Shown here piece after piece: positions 1-23,847 of a stretch of 24,197 bases of DNA. Source of the stretch: a virus. Taxonomy: Duplodnaviria > Caudoviricetes. How positions within the stretch are numbered: the stretch's first letter is position 1; each line of letters begins with the position of its first letter. The notes beneath the pieces were generated by a model, which was not told the DNA's origin, did no database searches, and saw only the letters and a list, made by a program, of their open reading frames with translations. The DNA is taken from positions 1-24,197 of the IMG/VR virus record IMGVR_UViG_3300031951_001175; one strand, 5' to 3'. The position numbers and the translations under genes were made by a program.

Positions 1-1
1 G

Positions 2-622
2 GGCCGCGCGGTCAAATCGGCGGATACCAACATCAACCAGACCAACCTTGCCGGCCGTTCCACGGATCTCGCTCGCGACCGTGCCGAGCTGGCTACGATG
101 GCAGGTGTTCCGTCCGTTGCGACAGCTACCAGCGCGCTCGACAAGCTGAAGACGCGCAAGGGGTGGGCTGAGACAAGCGGCTGCGCCACACCTGGCAGCT
201 ACCGCGTTCTCTGTCGCCAGGTGGCCGACGCCAACGCCGTGATCGGCCGGGCTCAGGCTAAAGAGCGCCTCGAGGCCCGCATTGCTGCGGCTCAGACTGC
301 CAACGAGCGCACCAAGGGCACCGCCATCGCTGCCGCCGATCCCATGGCTACGCTCATTGCAGGCAAGCTCGGGAGCACAGAGGCTGAAGCTCAGCTCATG
401 ATTGCCGTGTTCAGCGCCGTGACAATGATGCTGCTCGGCATGTTCGGGGTGCACTTCGGCCTGCTGGTCTACGGCATGGAGCACGACACCGCCCCGCAGC
501 ACACTGCTGAGGTGGTCCCGCTTCGTCCGGCTAATGACAGCGTTGCACGTGAAACAAAGCCGGAGCCGCTGCCGTCTGTCCTTACAGTCGGGAAGGCAAT
601 CATCCCAGCGCGGGCTGCGTAG
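2..622 (+). CDS. Membrane protein with coiled coil and Cys pair, 5'-truncated by the window edge
   Basis: The frame of ORF 98..622 stays open back to position 2 (GRAVKSADTNINQ...). It contains a C-x9-C segment (CATPGSYRVLC), a coiled coil, then the hydrophobic stretch LMIAVFSAVTMMLLGMFGVHFGLLVYG. Confidence 0.75.
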   Translation, partial: GRAVKSADTNINQTNLAGRSTDLARDRAELATMAGVPSVATATSALDKLKTRKGWAETSGCATPGSYRVLCRQVADANAVIGRAQAKERLEARIAAAQTANERTKGTAIAAADPMATLIAGKLGSTEAEAQLMIAVFSAVTMMLLGMFGVHFGLLVYGMEHDTAPQHTAEVVPLRPANDSVARETKPEPLPSVLTVGKAIIPARAA

Positions 623-14333: not shown

Positions 14334-16029
14334 TCCCTACGAGCAATTTGTTCAGCCAGTTTCGACGAACCCCTACGCTCAATTTGCGCAGCAGCCCGCG
14401 CAAGAGCCCGTGAGCGTCGGCTACGACATGGGCAAGAGCTTCGCTTCTGGCATTGTCAAAGGCGGCATCGGGCTGGCCGCACTGCCCGGCACTGTCGAGC
14501 AATTGGGCCGCATCGGCGTCAACTACGTGGGCCGGCAGTTCGGCGCCGAAGGCAACACGGTCGCGCCGGAGGCGGCGTTGCCGCAGTTCTCCGACATCAA
14601 AGGCACTGTCGAGCGCAACGTCACGGGGCCGCTGTATGAGCCGCAGACGACGGCTGGCCAATATGCCGGCACGATTGCGGAGTTCCTGCCCGGCATGCTG
14701 TTTCCGGCAGGTGGCGTCGGGGCGCATCTCGGTCGCCGGGCGGCAATGAACGTCATTGCGCCGGCCGTCACTAGCGAGACCGCGGGCCAGTTGACAAAGG
14801 GCTCGGCTGCCGAACCTTACGCCAGGGCCGGAGGCGCCATCGCCGGCAGCATTGCGCCGCAGATCATCGGCCGAATGATTTCGCCGGGGGCAATCAACAC
14901 CAGCACGGCCAAGGGGGCAGAGCGCGCGCGCGATGTGGCGGTGATGCGTCAAGAGGGCGTGCCGCTGTCGGCCGGCGACGTGAGCGGCAATCGCTCAATC
15001 CGGTGGGCGGAAAGCGTGGCGGCTGATACGCCGCTGGCGGCAGGGCGCGCGGCTGCGCTCAAGGATACGCAAAGCGAACGATTCGTCGAGGCGACGCTGC
15101 GCCGGGCTGGCATCAATGCCCGTGCGGCGACGCCGGAGGTCATGAACGATGCATTTGACCGCATTGGCAATGAGTTTAACCGGGCGGCAAATCGCATCGC
15201 CGTGCCCCTAAGCATCACGCCGGTCGGCCGGCAATTGACGCAGGACGTGAGCCGCATCGCTGCGAACTACGAGCGCATCACTGAGCCGTCGCTACGCAGT
15301 TCGTTGCCGCGCGCCATCAATGATGATCTGGCGCAACTTGCTCGACAAAATCAGTACATGAGCGGCGACGTTTACAATGTATGGCGGTCCCAGCTAGGCG
15401 CGGCAGCACGCGGTGCGCAAGACCCCAGAACGCGGGACGCTCTCTATTCGATTCAGAACACGCTCGACGACGCCGCCGAGACGTGGTTGCGAAGTGCCGG
15501 CCGGGGCGATGTTGCTACTTCGTTGAAGAACGCGCGCCGCGAATATCGCAACCTGCTGGCAATCGAGCGCGCGGCTATTGGAGCCGGCGAGAACGCGGCG
15601 CTTGGCACGTTCTCGCCGCAGCAATTGGCGCAGGCAGTAAAGACGGTTCACGGTCAGCGCAACTATGCGCGTGGCCAAGGGGATCTCGTTGACCTTGCGC
15701 GGGGCGGGGCCGCGCTGATGGCCCCGCTGCCCAACTCCGGCACGCCGGCACGGCTCGTCATGTCGGCCATGGGTGGTGCTGCTGGTGCTGCTCTTGGTGG
15801 AGCGCCCGGCGCCGCTGCTGGTGTGGTGGCGCCCATCATCGGCCAAGCCGTCGCCAGCCGCGCGGTGCTCAACCCAACCATGCAACGCTACCTCGGCAAT
15901 CAAGTTGCGTCGCCCATGGTCAGCATGGCGCCGGGCAACCGCGAGGCCGCCCGGATCAACGCCGCCGCTCAGTTCAATGAAACGCAGTCCGAACGTGACC
16001 GGCTGGCGCGTGCCCTCCAGCAGCGATGA
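14326..16029 (+). CDS. Internal virion / ejection protein 3
   Basis: Repeated NPY.QF at the N-terminus, YEPQTTAGQY, LPNSGT..R and Gly/Ala-rich hydrophobic segments; third gene of the ejection trio. Confidence 0.7.
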   Translation: MANPYEQFVQPVSTNPYAQFAQQPAQEPVSVGYDMGKSFASGIVKGGIGLAALPGTVEQLGRIGVNYVGRQFGAEGNTVAPEAALPQFSDIKGTVERNVTGPLYEPQTTAGQYAGTIAEFLPGMLFPAGGVGAHLGRRAAMNVIAPAVTSETAGQLTKGSAAEPYARAGGAIAGSIAPQIIGRMISPGAINTSTAKGAERARDVAVMRQEGVPLSAGDVSGNRSIRWAESVAADTPLAAGRAAALKDTQSERFVEATLRRAGINARAATPEVMNDAFDRIGNEFNRAANRIAVPLSITPVGRQLTQDVSRIAANYERITEPSLRSSLPRAINDDLAQLARQNQYMSGDVYNVWRSQLGAAARGAQDPRTRDALYSIQNTLDDAAETWLRSAGRGDVATSLKNARREYRNLLAIERAAIGAGENAALGTFSPQQLAQAVKTVHGQRNYARGQGDLVDLARGGAALMAPLPNSGTPARLVMSAMGGAAGAALGGAPGAAAGVVAPIIGQAVASRAVLNPTMQRYLGNQVASPMVSMAPGNREAARINAAAQFNETQSERDRLARALQQR

Positions 16030-16939
16030 GCGAGATCATCACGTGCCGCCCGGCCCGACGAGTGTTGACGACGTTTGCCACTTCCCGGCGCCGTTTGGTG
16101 GCTTCGCCGTCGCACACGCCCATCATTCTTGCCAGCTCCCCGTTGGTCAGTGGCCGACCGGCCCGGATAAGAGCATCGATGACGGGGTGGGGTGCCGAGT
16201 TTGCTGCGACGTTTGCCAGGGTTTCCGGCTTTGCCAGGGCCGGCAAATGTTGCCTAACCGGCTGAACAGGGGCGGCGCCAGGGTGCCAGCCGTACATGGC
16301 AGCGGCAAACGCGGACAGCTCCAGGGTGAGGCCGAGAAGGCAAGGGGCAAGCAACGCCACCAGATCGGCGGCAAACGTCGCCTCGAGGCCAAACACCAGC
16401 GACAAGAGAGCGGCAACCCGCTGCTCTCCGGCTTGCGGGGTGGCAACGGTGAGGCCAGCAATCTGCCGCTCAAGGCGCTCGATCTCGAGTTGATGCATGC
16501 CGAGCAGGCTGCGGGTGCTTTCGTGACACGCGCGGCCGGTGCCGCAACGGTTCAGAGCGTCCTGCCGGCGCAGCTTCTCCGCGTCGAGCGCTACCGTGAG
16601 GGCGGCGCGCTGTTGCTCAATCACCGTGGCCGACTGCACCGCAGCATCACGAGCCCCGGCCTGTCGGCCGATCGTCGCGTTGAGGGTGTAGACGCTGCCC
16701 ATGATCGCGGCCAGCCACAGGAGCGCGGTAGCGAGCCACATGCGGTCGTGGCGAGCATAGGTGCTGAGCACCGGCAGGGCGAGGATCACGCCCCAGACGA
16801 CCGGGGTAGCGCAGATCACGACCCAATCCGGGGACGCGGCTTGCCATTCGTGACGAAGTAGATAAGCGGAGCCGACTGCCCAAAGGGCAATAGTCGCAGC
16901 TCTAGCGACACGGCGCGGAGCCGTGATAGTATGGGTCAT
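15974..16939 (-). CDS. Moron: multi-pass membrane protein with coiled coil and C-terminal winged HTH
   Basis: AGGAG RBS before the ATG. Three N-terminal hydrophobic helices, a coiled coil with C-x5-C, a further TM region, then VIDALIRAGRPLTNGELARMMGVCDGEATKR...RRAGRHVMISL. Confidence 0.8.
   Translation of the reverse strand: MTHTITAPRRVARAATIALWAVGSAYLLRHEWQAASPDWVVICATPVVWGVILALPVLSTYARHDRMWLATALLWLAAIMGSVYTLNATIGRQAGARDAAVQSATVIEQQRAALTVALDAEKLRRQDALNRCGTGRACHESTRSLLGMHQLEIERLERQIAGLTVATPQAGEQRVAALLSLVFGLEATFAADLVALLAPCLLGLTLELSAFAAAMYGWHPGAAPVQPVRQHLPALAKPETLANVAANSAPHPVIDALIRAGRPLTNGELARMMGVCDGEATKRRREVANVVNTRRAGRHVMISLIAAGGHAPAGHVRTAFH
16924..16932 (+). promoter_or_regulatory. Extended -10 element for the antisense RNA, embedded in the first codons of the moron gene
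   Basis: TGa-TAGTAT (16924-16932), with TAGCGA 18 nt upstream as a weak -35. Confidence 0.55.
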
Positions 16940-17010
16940 GACTGATCTCCTGGGTTCATCAGGGGTGATGTCGAGGCCCGGCCGGTGTTAGCGCACCTGT
17001 CGGGCCGCTT
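16936..17010 (+). ncRNA. SymR/PtaRNA1-like cis-antisense RNA (putative)
   Basis: Complementary to the start codon and RBS of the moron gene. A small stem CTGAT...ATCAG encloses the anti-SD CTCCT, followed by the hairpin GGCCCGGCCGGTG-TTAGCG-CACCTGTCGGGCC, whose GTGTTRGCGCAC apex matches my recollection of the SymR 3' hairpin. Confidence 0.65.
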
Positions 17011-17097
17011 CATATGTAGTGTGATTTGCGTTGAAAATCAGTAACCTTCACGCAACAGTTACAGCGTTGTGCGCGCGTACCCACCTAACGGCGCGAC

Positions 17098-18834
17098 ATG
17101 GCACGCAATGGTTCTGGCACCTACGCCATTCCCAACACCTACTCGGACGGCCAGACCATCACGGCGGCCGTCGTCAACGCGAATTTCTCGGATATCGGCT
17201 CCGAGCTGACCAATTCCGTCGCGCGTGACGGCCAGACCAGCATGACCGGCCCGCTTAAAGCAGCGCCAGGGTCGGCGGCTGCGCCGTCGCTGACGTTCGC
17301 GGCTGACACTGACACCGGGTTTTTCCGCAAAGCGGCCAACGCGATCGGCATTGCGGTGGGTGGCTCCGAGGTCGCCTACATTGACGAATACGGCCTGTCC
17401 GATGCCACCACCGGCACGACGGTTATCAACGTGTTGCGCTACATCCCGACAAGCGAGCACGCGGCCATTGAGGCTTACACCTCCACCACCAACGTGGCTA
17501 CGTACATTCAAGCCGCGATTGACGCCGCAGCGACTGCCCCGCGCGGCGTGGTGTTCCTCCCAGCAGGCCGATATCGCTGCACCGCCGACCTGACCGTTCC
17601 ATGCGGCGACCCTGCCGGATGGCGCGGCGCTGTGGATCTGGTCGGCCAAGGCATGCTTGGCAACACGGAAATCGAACTGTCCGGCGCGTCGATCGTCAAC
17701 GGGGTCTACTTCAACGGCTCCAACTATTCCAAGGCCGGCGCGATTCGCAACTTGGCGATCATCGGCGCCAATAGCGCAGTGCGCGGGGTGACGTTTTCCA
17801 ATTGCGCGCAACCGCTGTTGGAGCGCGTGCTGGTCTGGGGCTTTGTCGGCCACGGTCTCAAGATCCAGTCTTGCGTTATGCCGACGATCCATTCAGCGCT
17901 GATCTATTCGTGCGGCACTGCCAGCCTTGCACAGGTGCTTGTCACGGGCGACGGCGGCTCGCTCACGACCACGACCCACTCGTTCACCGCGCTCTATCTC
18001 GGCGGCGGTCGCAGCGGGTGCAAGGCTTCGCTCGAGTTCCGGCAGGCACAAAACGGCGTGATGAACGGCGGGGCCATCGAAAGCGCCGGCGTTTCGATCA
18101 TGATCGACAACGATGCCACGTTCGACGGGGACTATTCAACCGACCTGGCGTTCGTTGGGGTCAGCATGGAGAACCCAGCGACGCACTTCATTGACATCGG
18201 CTACGGCAACAGCAGCGTGGCCAGCGGGACGCGGCAGATTTATTTTTTGAACTGCTCCGGGACGACCAGCAGCAGCACCACGGTCGCCTATTTCGCCAAG
18301 ATCAAAAACTCGATCGGCGTCACCTTCAACAACTCGGCCGGCGGGCTGTCGAGCGGCGCGGAGGTGGCCTATTTTGAGCTTGAAGGCACGTGCCAGGGAA
18401 TAGAGATCACGCCTAACCGGGCATCCTACGGCACAATCCCGTGGGTGCGCGAGGGCGGCACGCAGCGCAACGACGCCACGCCGCTTGCGTACTGGTACAG
18501 CGATCACATGAACTATCTGGAAGTCAAAGACCCTACGTCCAAATCCGGGACCAGCATTGATTGTCGCATCTCGGCGCAGGGAGGCATTCTGAAGTTCATC
18601 ACGCTCGACAACGCGAGCGCCACCGATCTCGACACGATCACGGGCGGGATGGCCTACGCAGAAATCATCCTATTCAGCATCGGCGCCGGCACGACCACGT
18701 TGAAGCATTCGGCGGCCAACACGGCGAACAAGATCAAGACGCTGACGGGCTCCGACATTGTGATGACAGGCGCCAAACAGTATCACCTGCGCTGGCGTCC
18801 TGATTTCCAAATGTTTTTCGTGCAGACGAGCTGA
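17098..18834 (+). CDS. Tailspike with pectate-lyase-like right-handed beta-helix
   Basis: N-terminal anchor MARNGSGTY...DGQTSMTGPL, PSLTF..DTDTGF, then IQAAIDAA...GVVFLPAGRY and beta-helix-type repeats. Confidence 0.85.
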   Translation: MARNGSGTYAIPNTYSDGQTITAAVVNANFSDIGSELTNSVARDGQTSMTGPLKAAPGSAAAPSLTFAADTDTGFFRKAANAIGIAVGGSEVAYIDEYGLSDATTGTTVINVLRYIPTSEHAAIEAYTSTTNVATYIQAAIDAAATAPRGVVFLPAGRYRCTADLTVPCGDPAGWRGAVDLVGQGMLGNTEIELSGASIVNGVYFNGSNYSKAGAIRNLAIIGANSAVRGVTFSNCAQPLLERVLVWGFVGHGLKIQSCVMPTIHSALIYSCGTASLAQVLVTGDGGSLTTTTHSFTALYLGGGRSGCKASLEFRQAQNGVMNGGAIESAGVSIMIDNDATFDGDYSTDLAFVGVSMENPATHFIDIGYGNSSVASGTRQIYFLNCSGTTSSSTTVAYFAKIKNSIGVTFNNSAGGLSSGAEVAYFELEGTCQGIEITPNRASYGTIPWVREGGTQRNDATPLAYWYSDHMNYLEVKDPTSKSGTSIDCRISAQGGILKFITLDNASATDLDTITGGMAYAEIILFSIGAGTTTLKHSAANTANKIKTLTGSDIVMTGAKQYHLRWRPDFQMFFVQTS

Positions 18835-19709: not shown

Positions 19710-20900
19710 ATGGCAACGCTATCGCAAGGTCCGCAGCCGCAGTTTCGCAACATGCTCGCTGACGCGATTCGGAACCACACCCCGACGCTGGCGAACCGTC
19801 TCAACGATCCGACCAGCGGCGCTGGCCTTGCTGTTGATGCAGTCGGCGGGCTGGCCGACATGCTGATAGGTCAGCCATATCGCTCCATGGCCAACCTGTT
19901 GAGCCGGCCCTACGTGTCCGGCGACCCGCAGGCGGCAGAGGACGCGTTCAACGTCGCCGGGGCTGCGATGACAGGCGGATTGCTGGCGCCACGGCCGCGC
20001 AACAGCCTGGGGACGGGCGGGCGGCCGGAGGCGCCGAACCAGTCCGCTGGCATTCGCGCCTATCATGGATCACCCCACGACTTCGATCGCTTTGACATGA
20101 GCAAGATCGGCACGGGGGAAGGCGCGCAGGCGTATGGGCATGGGCTTTATTTTGCGGAAAGCGAAGGCGTAGCGAAAAGCTACCGAGACAAGCTGACGCC
20201 AGCAGCGGGCAACGACACGGCACATGCGGCGTCGGTTGCGGTCAAGGGATACGGCGAACAAGCGGCCTTGGCGCAGGCGGAAAGCGCATATCGGCAAGCC
20301 GTTGCGTCGGGGGATGCGGCGGAAGCGCAGCGATTGGCTGGCGTGGTCGATCACATCCGCAATGGAACCTACAAAACAGCCGGCCGCATGTACGAGGTGA
20401 ACATCCGCGCCAACCCCGACGACTTCCTCGACTGGGATGCGCCACTCAGCCGGCAGAGCGAGAAAGTGCGGACGGCTGTCGAGCCGGTCGTGCGCCAGGA
20501 AGCAGCAATCGAATTGGAACGGAGGGCGGCGCAAGGTCGAATGGCAGACATGCGAATCCGAGAAATGGGCGTTGAGCCGAAGCCGCGCCCCGCGCCTCCG
20601 TCACGTGACGATATGGTTCGTAACTTTACCCCGGATCTGTTCGCGAAGGGTCGAGAGGACGAACTGAGAAGGCTTGGAATCCCCGGCATTCGCTACCTCG
20701 ACCAGGGCTCCCGTGGGGCTGGCGAAGGCTCCCGCAACTACGTCGTTTTTGACGACAACTTGATAGAGATTCTGCGCAAGTACGGGCTCGCCGGCCTGAT
20801 GGCGGGCGGTGCGGCAACCGGCATGGTCCCGCAGGCTCCGAGTCAGCCAAACCAGCTCGCCCAAGACTGGACCCGCAACCTCCGGCCGGGGGATATCTGA
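19710..20900 (+). CDS. ADP-ribosyltransferase-like protein (ART-PolyVal-type domain)
   Basis: AYHGSPHDFDRFD..KIGTGEG...YGHGLYFAE, MYEVNI, GIPGIRY and NYVVFD are the strand motifs of ART domains in phage polyvalent proteins. Confidence 0.75.
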   Translation: MATLSQGPQPQFRNMLADAIRNHTPTLANRLNDPTSGAGLAVDAVGGLADMLIGQPYRSMANLLSRPYVSGDPQAAEDAFNVAGAAMTGGLLAPRPRNSLGTGGRPEAPNQSAGIRAYHGSPHDFDRFDMSKIGTGEGAQAYGHGLYFAESEGVAKSYRDKLTPAAGNDTAHAASVAVKGYGEQAALAQAESAYRQAVASGDAAEAQRLAGVVDHIRNGTYKTAGRMYEVNIRANPDDFLDWDAPLSRQSEKVRTAVEPVVRQEAAIELERRAAQGRMADMRIREMGVEPKPRPAPPSRDDMVRNFTPDLFAKGREDELRRLGIPGIRYLDQGSRGAGEGSRNYVVFDDNLIEILRKYGLAGLMAGGAATGMVPQAPSQPNQLAQDWTRNLRPGDI

Positions 20901-22917: not shown

Positions 22918-22973
22918 GGACATTGCCACCGATTTGCGTTGCGGTCAAATGAAATCAGTGCTACATAAAAATT
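22918..22973. promoter_or_regulatory. Overlapping divergent promoters
   Basis: Plus strand: TTGCGG(22939)-N17-TACATA(22962), with the ATG 6 nt later (leaderless). Minus strand: TTGACC-N17-CAATGT. Confidence 0.55.
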
Positions 22974-23594
22974 ATGCACAAGCCGAAGCCTCCAACGACT
23001 GTCTCTTGGGTCCGCCACGTCGGCCGGACCAGTGATGATGCGCAGGTTGCCGCGCACCTAGCCCATGGGGTGCCTGCGAACATGATTGTCGTGGACGGGC
23101 GCCGCGTCGGCCAGCGCAAGCCGGAGGATTGGGGCTACCTGTTGCGCAAGCTACGGCCCGGCGACGAGCTGACCGTGACCACGCTGCGCACTCTCATCAT
23201 GCCCCGGCCACGGGAGACGCCGCACCATGCTCTGGTTCGCGCTTTGCAGGAGGTCGAGACGGCGGGCGCTGTGCATGTCGTCGAGATCAGCACCGGCCGG
23301 CGCACATCTCTGCCGCGCGACCGTGATACGATGATCGCGGATGCTGTAGCCGCGCACCGCCGTGGCGACGTGGGGCGCCCGCCGCAGGGCTGGGCAGAGG
23401 CCGGGCGGGAAATAATCGAGCGGCATTGGCACTCGACACGGCACGAGACCAACGCCGCCGCGCTGGCGGCGATACGCGAGGACGCGCGAGCGGCGGGACT
23501 GACAGAGCTTGCGCGGGTCAGACATCCGCAGGCGATCGGAAACCGCTTCGGGCCGAGCGGCCGGGCGGGCAAATCGAAGTCAAAGAAACGGTAG
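22974..23594 (+). CDS. Serine recombinase (resolvase)-like protein lacking the catalytic serine
   Basis: Follows the resolvase pattern (Q..A....G...I.VD; LL..LRPGD.L.V..L..L; GRP before a helical C-terminus), but Y-x-R-V-S reads WVRHV and LDRL reads LRTL. Confidence 0.65.
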   Translation: MHKPKPPTTVSWVRHVGRTSDDAQVAAHLAHGVPANMIVVDGRRVGQRKPEDWGYLLRKLRPGDELTVTTLRTLIMPRPRETPHHALVRALQEVETAGAVHVVEISTGRRTSLPRDRDTMIADAVAAHRRGDVGRPPQGWAEAGREIIERHWHSTRHETNAAALAAIREDARAAGLTELARVRHPQAIGNRFGPSGRAGKSKSKKR

Positions 23595-23619: not shown

Positions 23620-23847
23620 CTGTTGGCCGTACCGTTGGCAACTCCGACACTGCGACTAAGCGACAGGGTCGAAAGTGTAAGAATTTTAGTTGGTTAGTTG
23701 GTCGGAGCGGCGAGATTCGAACTCGCGACCCCTTGCTCCCGAAGCAAGCACGCCGGGTCGCAAACCGCGATGTTCCGGGCTTTTTGAGGCACTTGACGCC
23801 AACAGAACCCGGCTCGATTCGGCTCAATCGTTGGCAATCGTTGGCCG
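23620..23847. repeat. Five YGTTGGC repeats flanking the att core (candidate integrase arm-type sites)
   Basis: CTGTTGGCCG 23620, CCGTTGGCAA 23632, inverted CGCCAACAG 23797, TCGTTGGCAA 23828, TCGTTGGCCG 23838. Confidence 0.7.
23699..23748 (-). other. att core: 3' fragment of tRNA-Pro(CGG)
   Basis: Minus strand reads CTTGC-TTCGGGA-GCAAG GGGTC GCGAG-TTCGAAT-CTCGC CGCTCCG A CCA (anticodon arm, T arm, 3' acceptor strand). There is no proper D arm or matching 5' acceptor strand. Confidence 0.9.

Follow-up and report, generated by a model that had tools for sequence, protein, structure and literature searches.

Setting of a backward-facing gene

The locus described here raises the questions of how a gene that faces backwards in a phage late operon is controlled at its translation start and what the membrane protein it encodes does. 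The gene lies in a 24,197-nucleotide stretch of DNA, hereafter the window, from a virus of the Caudoviricetes (IMG/VR record IMGVR_UViG_3300031951_001175, positions 1 to 24,197). This stretch is a phage late region, with terminase (PF04466), P22-like portal, virion, tail and endolysin genes on the plus strand. A previous sequence-only reading had proposed that a SymR-like antisense RNA controls this gene, hereafter the target gene, and that its product is toxic or conditionally released. Two features define the setting:

15974 to 16939, minus strand: target gene, 321 aa, facing backwards in the late operon
23702 to 23777, minus strand: tRNA-like fragment, a degenerate 5′ half and the sole Rfam match in the whole-window search

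On its 5′ side, the target gene is neighbored by a tail spike/fibre-like gene starting at 17098 (plus strand). A flanking 567-aa gene may encode an ejection protein, an assignment taken from its position and with weak library support (phrog_1047, E 0.009). The tRNA fragment is likely an attachment site, and an alphaproteobacterial metagenome-assembled genome (L023) carries a full-length homologue of the target protein.

Three other genes of the window are of note. Positions 1 to 622 (plus strand) hold the truncated 3′ portion of another membrane-protein gene, which has a Cys pair and is located before the terminase genes; it has 64% identity to L187:15032-15961 of the complete phage G002, had no family match, and showed no detectable homology to the target family (probability 2.7%, and 1.5% for its full-length relative). 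A 396-aa gene between the tail genes and the endolysin (19710 to 20900, plus strand) has a weak ART-PolyVal match (PF18760, below cut-off). Finally, a 206-aa open reading frame at 22974 to 23594 (plus strand), divergent from two small minus-strand genes, resembles by eye a degenerate serine-resolvase fold and had no library match.

A predicted antisense RNA over the ribosome-binding site

The following features were located around the start of the target gene:

16902 to 16908, plus strand: predicted −35 element, CTAGCGA, written by codons V11-A12-R13
16924 to 16932, plus strand: predicted extended −10 element, TGA-TAGTAT, in codons 3 to 6
16940 to 17010, plus strand: predicted antisense RNA of ~70 nt, with predicted ends
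16940 to 16972, plus strand: hairpin 1, with the anti-Shine-Dalgarno (anti-SD) CUCCUG paired with CAGGGG and a variable 5-nt loop at 16954 to 16958
16975 to 17006, plus strand: hairpin 2, GC-rich, with cap GTGTTAGCGCAC; predicted antisense terminator and mRNA 5′ stem
16947 to 16951, minus strand: Shine-Dalgarno (SD) AGGAG of the target gene, from the sequence
17013 to 17041, minus strand: predicted sense promoter, CTGATT-17-TACATA, convergent to the antisense promoter
17023 to 17032, minus strand: spacer motif AACGCAAATC, a possible operator conserved in the sense-promoter spacer

The minus-strand frame (16939-15974) starts MTHTI and its first codons write TGA-TAGTAT on the opposite strand, as the sequence-only reading had noted; that reading saw the −10 element and missed both the −35 element and the convergent sense promoter. 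To place these elements in a comparative frame, 24 homologous loci were found and 14 kept, one standing for the window, after dropping duplicates (L005, L006, L007, L011, and L012), loci truncated at the 5′ end (L015, L018, and L021), and weak partial matches (L022 and L024). The antisense strand of all 14 loci reads CT[TAG]GC, 18 nt, a TA hexamer, 7 nt to the start-codon complement, and then hairpin 1, and because the loci are mutually related, the 14/14 counts overstate independence. When synonymous codons were re-drawn 20,000 times, TA at the −10 offset (14/14 loci) had a mean of 2.9 and CTnGC at the −35 offset (14/14) a mean of 1.0, and none of the 20,000 draws reached 14 in either case. 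The full hexamer TAnnnT was present in 9/14 loci, as was a TGn ahead of the hexamer (9/14). Arg13, which writes the −35 element, is encoded by AGA or AGG in 14/14 loci, compared to 20 of the 292 other Arg codons. Codons 2 to 14 show no general excess of codon conservation (0.45 versus 0.42-0.47), and the constraint is confined to a few positions within them. A generic promoter and terminator scan of the window reported neither the antisense promoter nor the terminator.

Downstream of this promoter, the segment 16938 to 17012 folds with a z score of −3.57, and none of 200 shuffles folded as well. Hairpin 1 starts at the first (12/14) or second (2/14) base upstream of the start codon, 7 nt past the −10 element, and overlap of the RNA with the AUG is therefore unlikely. 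Thus, the earlier proposal of a transcript from about 16938 stands for coverage of the ribosome-binding site (RBS) and probably not for the AUG, with a predicted start at ~16940, just upstream of it. Hairpin 1 is rich in G-U pairs and reaches z < −2 on the antisense strand in 11/14 loci and on the sense strand in 0/14; the window's own copy is modest, among the weakest of the 14 (z −1.56, 12/200 shuffles). The same reading had the anti-SD (CTCCT, 16947 to 16951, plus strand) exposed in a small CTGAT/ATCAG stem-loop, and this stem was rejected (pairing probability 0.0). Instead, UCCU and CAGGGG pair at 96% in the window, and the pairing probability of the anti-SD is 0.75-1.0 across the 14 loci (0.96 in the window). 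The loop of hairpin 1 is the variable part of the antisense RNA, and the predicted duplex of mRNA and antisense RNA, which includes these variable loops, amounts to −75 kcal/mol for cognate pairs versus a mean of −37 kcal/mol for non-cognate ones.

Hairpin 2 is the GC hairpin that had been recognized before, and its GTGTTAGCGCAC cap (16985 to 16996) is the only exact copy in the window. Its U-tail is poor in the window (UUCAUAUG) and moderate on the antisense side across loci. It folds on both strands. The cap (GTGTT) reads in the antisense direction in 4/14 loci and in the sense direction in 7/14; judging from these strand counts, it has flipped repeatedly while the stem was kept. The consensus consists of two hairpins in which 13 of 21 pairs have changes on both sides, the paired fraction is 95.6% (35-48% in slid controls), and none of 500 shuffles reached any of five covariation measures. 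Among homologues, the hairpins covary and the embedded −10 element is conserved (TA in 14/14 loci), two points that the sequence-only reading had named as checks.

An alternative explanation is that there is no separate RNA and that the element combines an mRNA leader with a terminator for late read-through. The folding of hairpin 2 on both strands with its mixed cap directions would fit this, as would a 4-bp CCUG/CAGG stem that covers part of the SD in the mRNA. However, this explanation leaves the Arg13 codon constraint and the fixed-offset TA unexplained, together with a G-U-rich hairpin 1 that folds far better as antisense and starts exactly at the predicted +1, and we consider it very unlikely. 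Weighing against an antisense unit in the window itself are its own weak hairpin 1, U-tail, and sense promoter. Taken together, conservation, codon constraint, and covariation strongly support, computationally, a predicted SymR-like cis-antisense RNA over the RBS of a non-SymE gene, which was the core of the sequence-only reading.

The sense promoter lies just upstream of the cassette, where most relatives have a TTGAAA-17-TATAAA-like sequence; the window's own version is weak, and the best score there went to another pair close by. Two LexA patterns were found in 0/14 promoters, while the symE control does have a LexA-type box, and a CtrA pattern was likewise found in 0/14.

Relationship to known antisense RNAs

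In E. coli SymR, the hairpin cap GTGTTGGCGCAC and a −10-like site inside the symE codons, both named in the sequence-only reading, were checked in the sequence and found as described. The two systems share a promoter embedded in the target coding sequence, a length of ~75 nt, two hairpins, 7 nt between the −10 element and the start, and a cap identical at 11/12 positions (GTGTTGGCGCAC in SymR). For SymR, published reports state that a synonymous change in the embedded −10 element abolishes the RNA (PMC1891008) and that such a mutation raises SymE seven-fold (PMC4147584). There are also differences. SymR covers the AUG and shows part of its anti-SD in a loop, while the window RNA, with its predicted +1 one base upstream of the AUG, would cover the RBS and leave out the AUG, and its anti-SD is buried. 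The target is unrelated to SymE, which has an AbrB fold, and there is no LexA box. The RNA model of the window family does not find SymR; nevertheless, one locus (L137) scores 41 bits with this model and 49 bits with symR, bridging both.

The sequence-only reading had also pointed to the Rfam models of SymR and PtaRNA1, and neither claims the window RNA. The SymR model (RF01809, gathering cut-off 61 bits) had no match in the window at E <= 5 or <= 10, while a SymR control sequence scored 95.3 bits. PtaRNA1 (RF01811) was the sole Rfam match in a 241-nt search, at 17.5 bits versus a cut-off of 47 bits (E 0.32) and over its full length (1-72/72); one other PtaRNA1 search gave no match. PtaRNA1 resembles the window RNA in its CCU...CAGG core, which buries the anti-SD in hairpin 1, and in its two-hairpin plan. 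Its partner is a putative membrane protein. A difference is that the window cassette is phage-borne and has no plasmid match.

An Rfam search of ten related loci returned nothing relevant. Sub-threshold matches across other cassette loci were to symR, Plasmid_R1162, and ctRNA_pGA1, with RF00043 and RF00236 at 28.5-38.6 bits in cassette loci L137, L042, L145, L106, L109, and L090; these two models had no match in the window. The R1162 antisense RNA and the ctRNAs belong to the same class of ~75-nt counter-transcript and act in plasmid copy-number control, and their targets are not known to be toxins. The predicted antisense RNA of the window is thus of the same kind as SymR and PtaRNA1 and a member of neither Rfam family.

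The target protein and its family

The target protein has 3-4 predicted membrane helices, a Cys-closed helical hairpin, and a C-terminal winged helix. The structure model (mean pLDDT 75.8, pTM 0.43) places three N-terminal helices, a long helical hairpin, a further hydrophobic helix, a disordered linker, and a well-predicted winged helix in this order:

16670 to 16918, minus strand: N-terminal helices, aa 8-90 (model helices H8-33, H39-64, and H68-)
16445 to 16666, minus strand: long helical hairpin, aa 92-165, with C132/C138, from the model and conservation
16286 to 16381, minus strand: last membrane helix, aa 187-218, from the model and hydropathy
16028 to 16192, minus strand: winged helix-turn-helix, aa 250-304, with a MarR/ArsR-like fold (pLDDT 91-95, blocks 251-300)

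Hydropathy gave three clear hydrophobic segments, with peaks beginning at aa 37-43 and 68; the first N-terminal helix is weaker and stays under the 1.6 threshold. C132 and C138 are invariant in 49 sequences, and of 137 full-length distant representatives, 134 retain a Cys pair. Should the winged helix face the cytoplasm, the modeled helical hairpin would likely be periplasmic and the two cysteines would then likely form a disulfide. The winged helix gave weak Foldseek matches to ArsR/MarR repressors, and family relatives have HTH Pfam matches. The description of the product as a 321-aa membrane protein holds for the window, while relatives are ~304 aa long (median 303) and the last 17 residues are private; the closest relative, L002, ends at 304 aa without them. 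Through this private extension (15974-16029), the target gene shares 56 nt with the 3′ end of the convergent gene. The target gene is under purifying selection (pN/pS 0.034/0.287 against L002).

There are 77 close homologues, and the whole family comprises 684 clusters at 50% identity. The target protein had 0 matches in PADLOC, PHROGs, and NCBIfam and no curated family match, and family members match solely HTH/regulator-type models in low counts and once, weakly, DUF4407. No BFVD or PDB match was found at E <= 0.001, and a wide fold search returned generic helical hairpins only (best Z 9.8, rmsd 1.9, 73 aligned). The family had no tblastn match in annotated phages or plasmids and a full-length match in 1 of the 244 bacterial genomes searched. 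It is a family absent from Pfam, PHROGs, NCBIfam, and PADLOC, and a literature search limited largely to open-access papers found no paper on this protein family or cassette.

Neighboring terminase, tail-fibre, and antiterminator genes are on the strand opposite the target gene (many neighbors were recognized by eye and are uncounted), and the insertion site varies among loci, many of which lie before the endolysin or beside the terminase. A tyrosine integrase match was found in 6/10 carrier records, one of them below cut-off, and a serine recombinase match in 1/5; three carriers are proviruses, and in the complete carrier genome G002 neither an integrase nor a resolvase match was found. Of the 10 examined carrier records, 8 belong to a distant clade.

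A MarR/ArsR-like winged helix raises the possibility that the protein is a membrane-anchored regulator, in which case the hairpin on the outside would respond to an envelope signal and the winged helix would recognize an operator, with the RNA only damping the level. A candidate operator would be AACGCAAATC, which lies in the spacer of the gene's own promoter, is present in 12/14 loci allowing <=1 substitution, and occurs exactly twice in the window (17023-17032 and 22931-22940, minus strand), both times in leftward promoter-like spacers; the two copies are possibly a shared operator. However, two matches at <=1 mismatch are not above chance (48/100 window shuffles), although both are exact. 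In addition, the HTH type varies, L026 having a C-terminal HTH different from that of other members, and some relatives seem to have none, which suggests non-specific DNA binding. We regard such a regulator as unlikely. An example that seems to be without a winged helix is L019:1275-2273 (minus strand), a distant family relative (hhalign probability 88%) whose match is limited to the N-terminal half; its phage also has an antisense-controlled copy, from which it is divergent.

Spread of the cassette and the question of a toxin

Searching with a distant sub-alignment returned 30 loci, of which 28 are distinct. The RNA model built solely on near loci had 17 matches in these 30, with L026 at 42 bits. 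With presence defined by fixed criteria (both hairpins and a TA 6-7 nt inside the gene), the cassette was present in 14/14 near loci, in 8/15 distant loci with the gene directly following, and in 10/13 peptide starts; it was present at 0/13 large-gene starts behind a peptide, and no control had it (0/20 other window genes and 0/63 other ORFs, 0/83 in total). The −35-like TTGC of distant loci is written by other codons. It also occurs in L165 and L168, where the cassette sits further upstream, and it may partly be a codon by-product.

The peptides are 34-39-aa ORFs with a single hydrophobic helix. Of 14 distant loci examined, 13 have such an ORF (L165, L168, L171, L173-L178, and L180-L183), placed directly behind the cassette and ~100-120 nt upstream of the large gene, whose start is overlapped or abutted by the peptide stop. 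They align together, with pN < pS in 3/4 close pairs and a fourth pair that is nearly identical, and gave no meaningful Pfam or PHROG match. Candidate roles for these peptides are those of a type I toxin, a membrane partner, or a coupling leader; the lineage of the window is without them.

The cassette also precedes unrelated genes. A cap scan gave 102 viral loci, and the RNA model matched 21 of 100 of them, partly by construction since the loci were chosen for the cap. The best two matches (43 and 37 bits, full length), L049 and L090, lie before tyrosine recombinases and have TAnnnT at 7 nt into the gene; L035, the third, precedes DUF6907. A second scan (15 loci) found the cassette before an HNH nuclease (L145). 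With an embedded −10-like site, it stands before the HNH genes L143, L145, L149, and L151 (Pfam checked for L145). Many further integrases and Mu-like AAA genes have just the cap in front of them. Because the cassette fronts recombinases, an HNH nuclease, and DUF6907 as well, it is no sign of a toxic product; it is a mark of limited dosage. Toxicity of the target protein, and with it the type I toxin-antitoxin (TA) module of the sequence-only reading, hence does not follow from the presence of the RNA.

In its own terms, the TA or abortive-infection explanation would have the protein harm the cell and the unstable RNA act as an antitoxin that is lost with the prophage or when host transcription stops. 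A cis-antisense RNA over the translation start region, as expected of such systems, is predicted here, in a SymR-like layout, and the difference between cognate (−75 kcal/mol) and non-cognate (−37 kcal/mol) duplexes would fit allele-specific neutralization, although allele specificity is expected of any diverged cis-antisense pair. A four-helix DNA-binding membrane protein, SpdB2, is described as forming pores (PMC4447253). However, the target protein is a winged-helix protein of 304-321 aa, five times the typical size of a type I toxin, where a small single-helix one would be expected. Other points against this explanation are the presence of the cassette before integrases, an HNH nuclease, and DUF6907, the lack of a plasmid match, the full-length match in only 1/244 bacterial genomes searched, and the lack of a LexA-type box in the 14 promoters, such as the symE control has. 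Type I toxin size is reached solely by the 34-39-aa peptides that 13 distant sister loci have between the cassette and a coupled large gene, so the idea fits better in that lineage than in the window, whose lineage has no peptide. For the window, we consider it improbable.

A proposed role at the inner membrane

Our preferred explanation, to which we assign a probability of roughly 0.4 as a whole, is that the target gene is a backward accessory gene whose product, an antisense-limited inner-membrane protein, blocks incoming phages in the lysogen. The proposed sequence of events is as follows: (i) a host sigma-70-type promoter (17041-17013) would make the target mRNA in the lysogen; (ii) the embedded promoter would make the antisense RNA from ~16940 to hairpin 2; (iii) pairing would start at the variable loop of hairpin 1, because the anti-SD is buried, and spread over the leader, blocking ribosome loading, a mode of action reported for SymR (PMC1891008 and PMC4147584); (iv) in lytic growth, late transcripts reading through on the opposite strand would add to the silencing of the target gene; and (v) the protein would sit in the inner membrane with the disulfide hairpin outside and the winged helix inside, and hinder DNA entry or hold the DNA of a superinfecting phage. 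We consider the first three steps, with convergent promoters, a ~70-nt antisense RNA, and pairing over the leader that blocks ribosome loading, highly probable as predictions, while the exclusion of superinfecting phages at the inner membrane is put forward tentatively.

Exclusion is favored because the target gene is optional, faces backwards, encodes a membrane protein, and is carried by mostly temperate phages; here it is located in the slot that sieA, sar, and ant occupy before the tail gene of the P22-like late operon (PMC2629481 and PMC10883804), a P22 sieA/immI-like position. The window resembles P22 in having, by prediction, independently expressed cargo before the tail gene, antisense control, and an inner-membrane protein, while in P22 sar controls ant and not sieA, and SieA is a protein of 162-164 aa described without a winged helix or a DNA-binding domain. 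An inner-membrane protein in a moron of a temperate-phage late operon, as in the case of SieA, is what is predicted here. Membrane-anchored DNA binders can also act at injection, as PMC13190303 describes for SNIPE, which needs a GIY-YIG nuclease; this nuclease is absent from the target protein, and no homology to SNIPE was detected. On the other side, synteny with sieA is not family-wide, the insertion site varies, and library searches of the target protein found no similarity to SieA or any other curated exclusion or defence family. On balance, we think it more likely that the target protein guards against other phages than that it acts as a classic toxin. General background is given in PMC5415839 and PMC3300014.

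A further explanation is that the protein is an SpdB2-like tether or channel for the phage's own DNA at the membrane, its dosage limited by the antisense RNA. PMC4447253 describes for SpdB2 a shared list of parts (four helices, a coiled coil, and non-specific DNA binding), reports homologues on some actinophages, and makes it a membrane-anchored DNA binder that acts where DNA crosses the membrane. No homology, at the level of sequence or fold, was detected to the target protein, however, and the coiled coil of SpdB2 is at the N-terminus; moreover, the lytic operon runs in the opposite direction to the target gene, which is optional. We hold this explanation to be highly improbable.

Phage exclusion by a dosage-limited protein, our preferred reading, can be extended to a bolder and rather doubtful form: a large family of phage-borne membrane defence effectors held in check by an allele-specific RNA that acts like a type I antitoxin. 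An incoming phage that shuts off host transcription would let the RNA decay, and the protein, in one lineage with its coupled peptide of type I toxin size, would then block infection or abort it. In this form, the cassette would be a portable module that joins SymR, PtaRNA1, and the plasmid counter-transcripts in one structural class.

What the locus adds

The predicted antisense RNA belongs to a family absent from Rfam, yet it is of a known kind. The new parts are the protein family, with its 684 clusters at 50% identity, and the peptide-coupled variant. The SymR layout emerges as a portable dosage limiter for mobile elements, and it is no sign of a toxin. Should the protein exclude phages, or should the peptide be toxic, the family would add a defence or a type I system to phages whose hosts are probably alphaproteobacteria.
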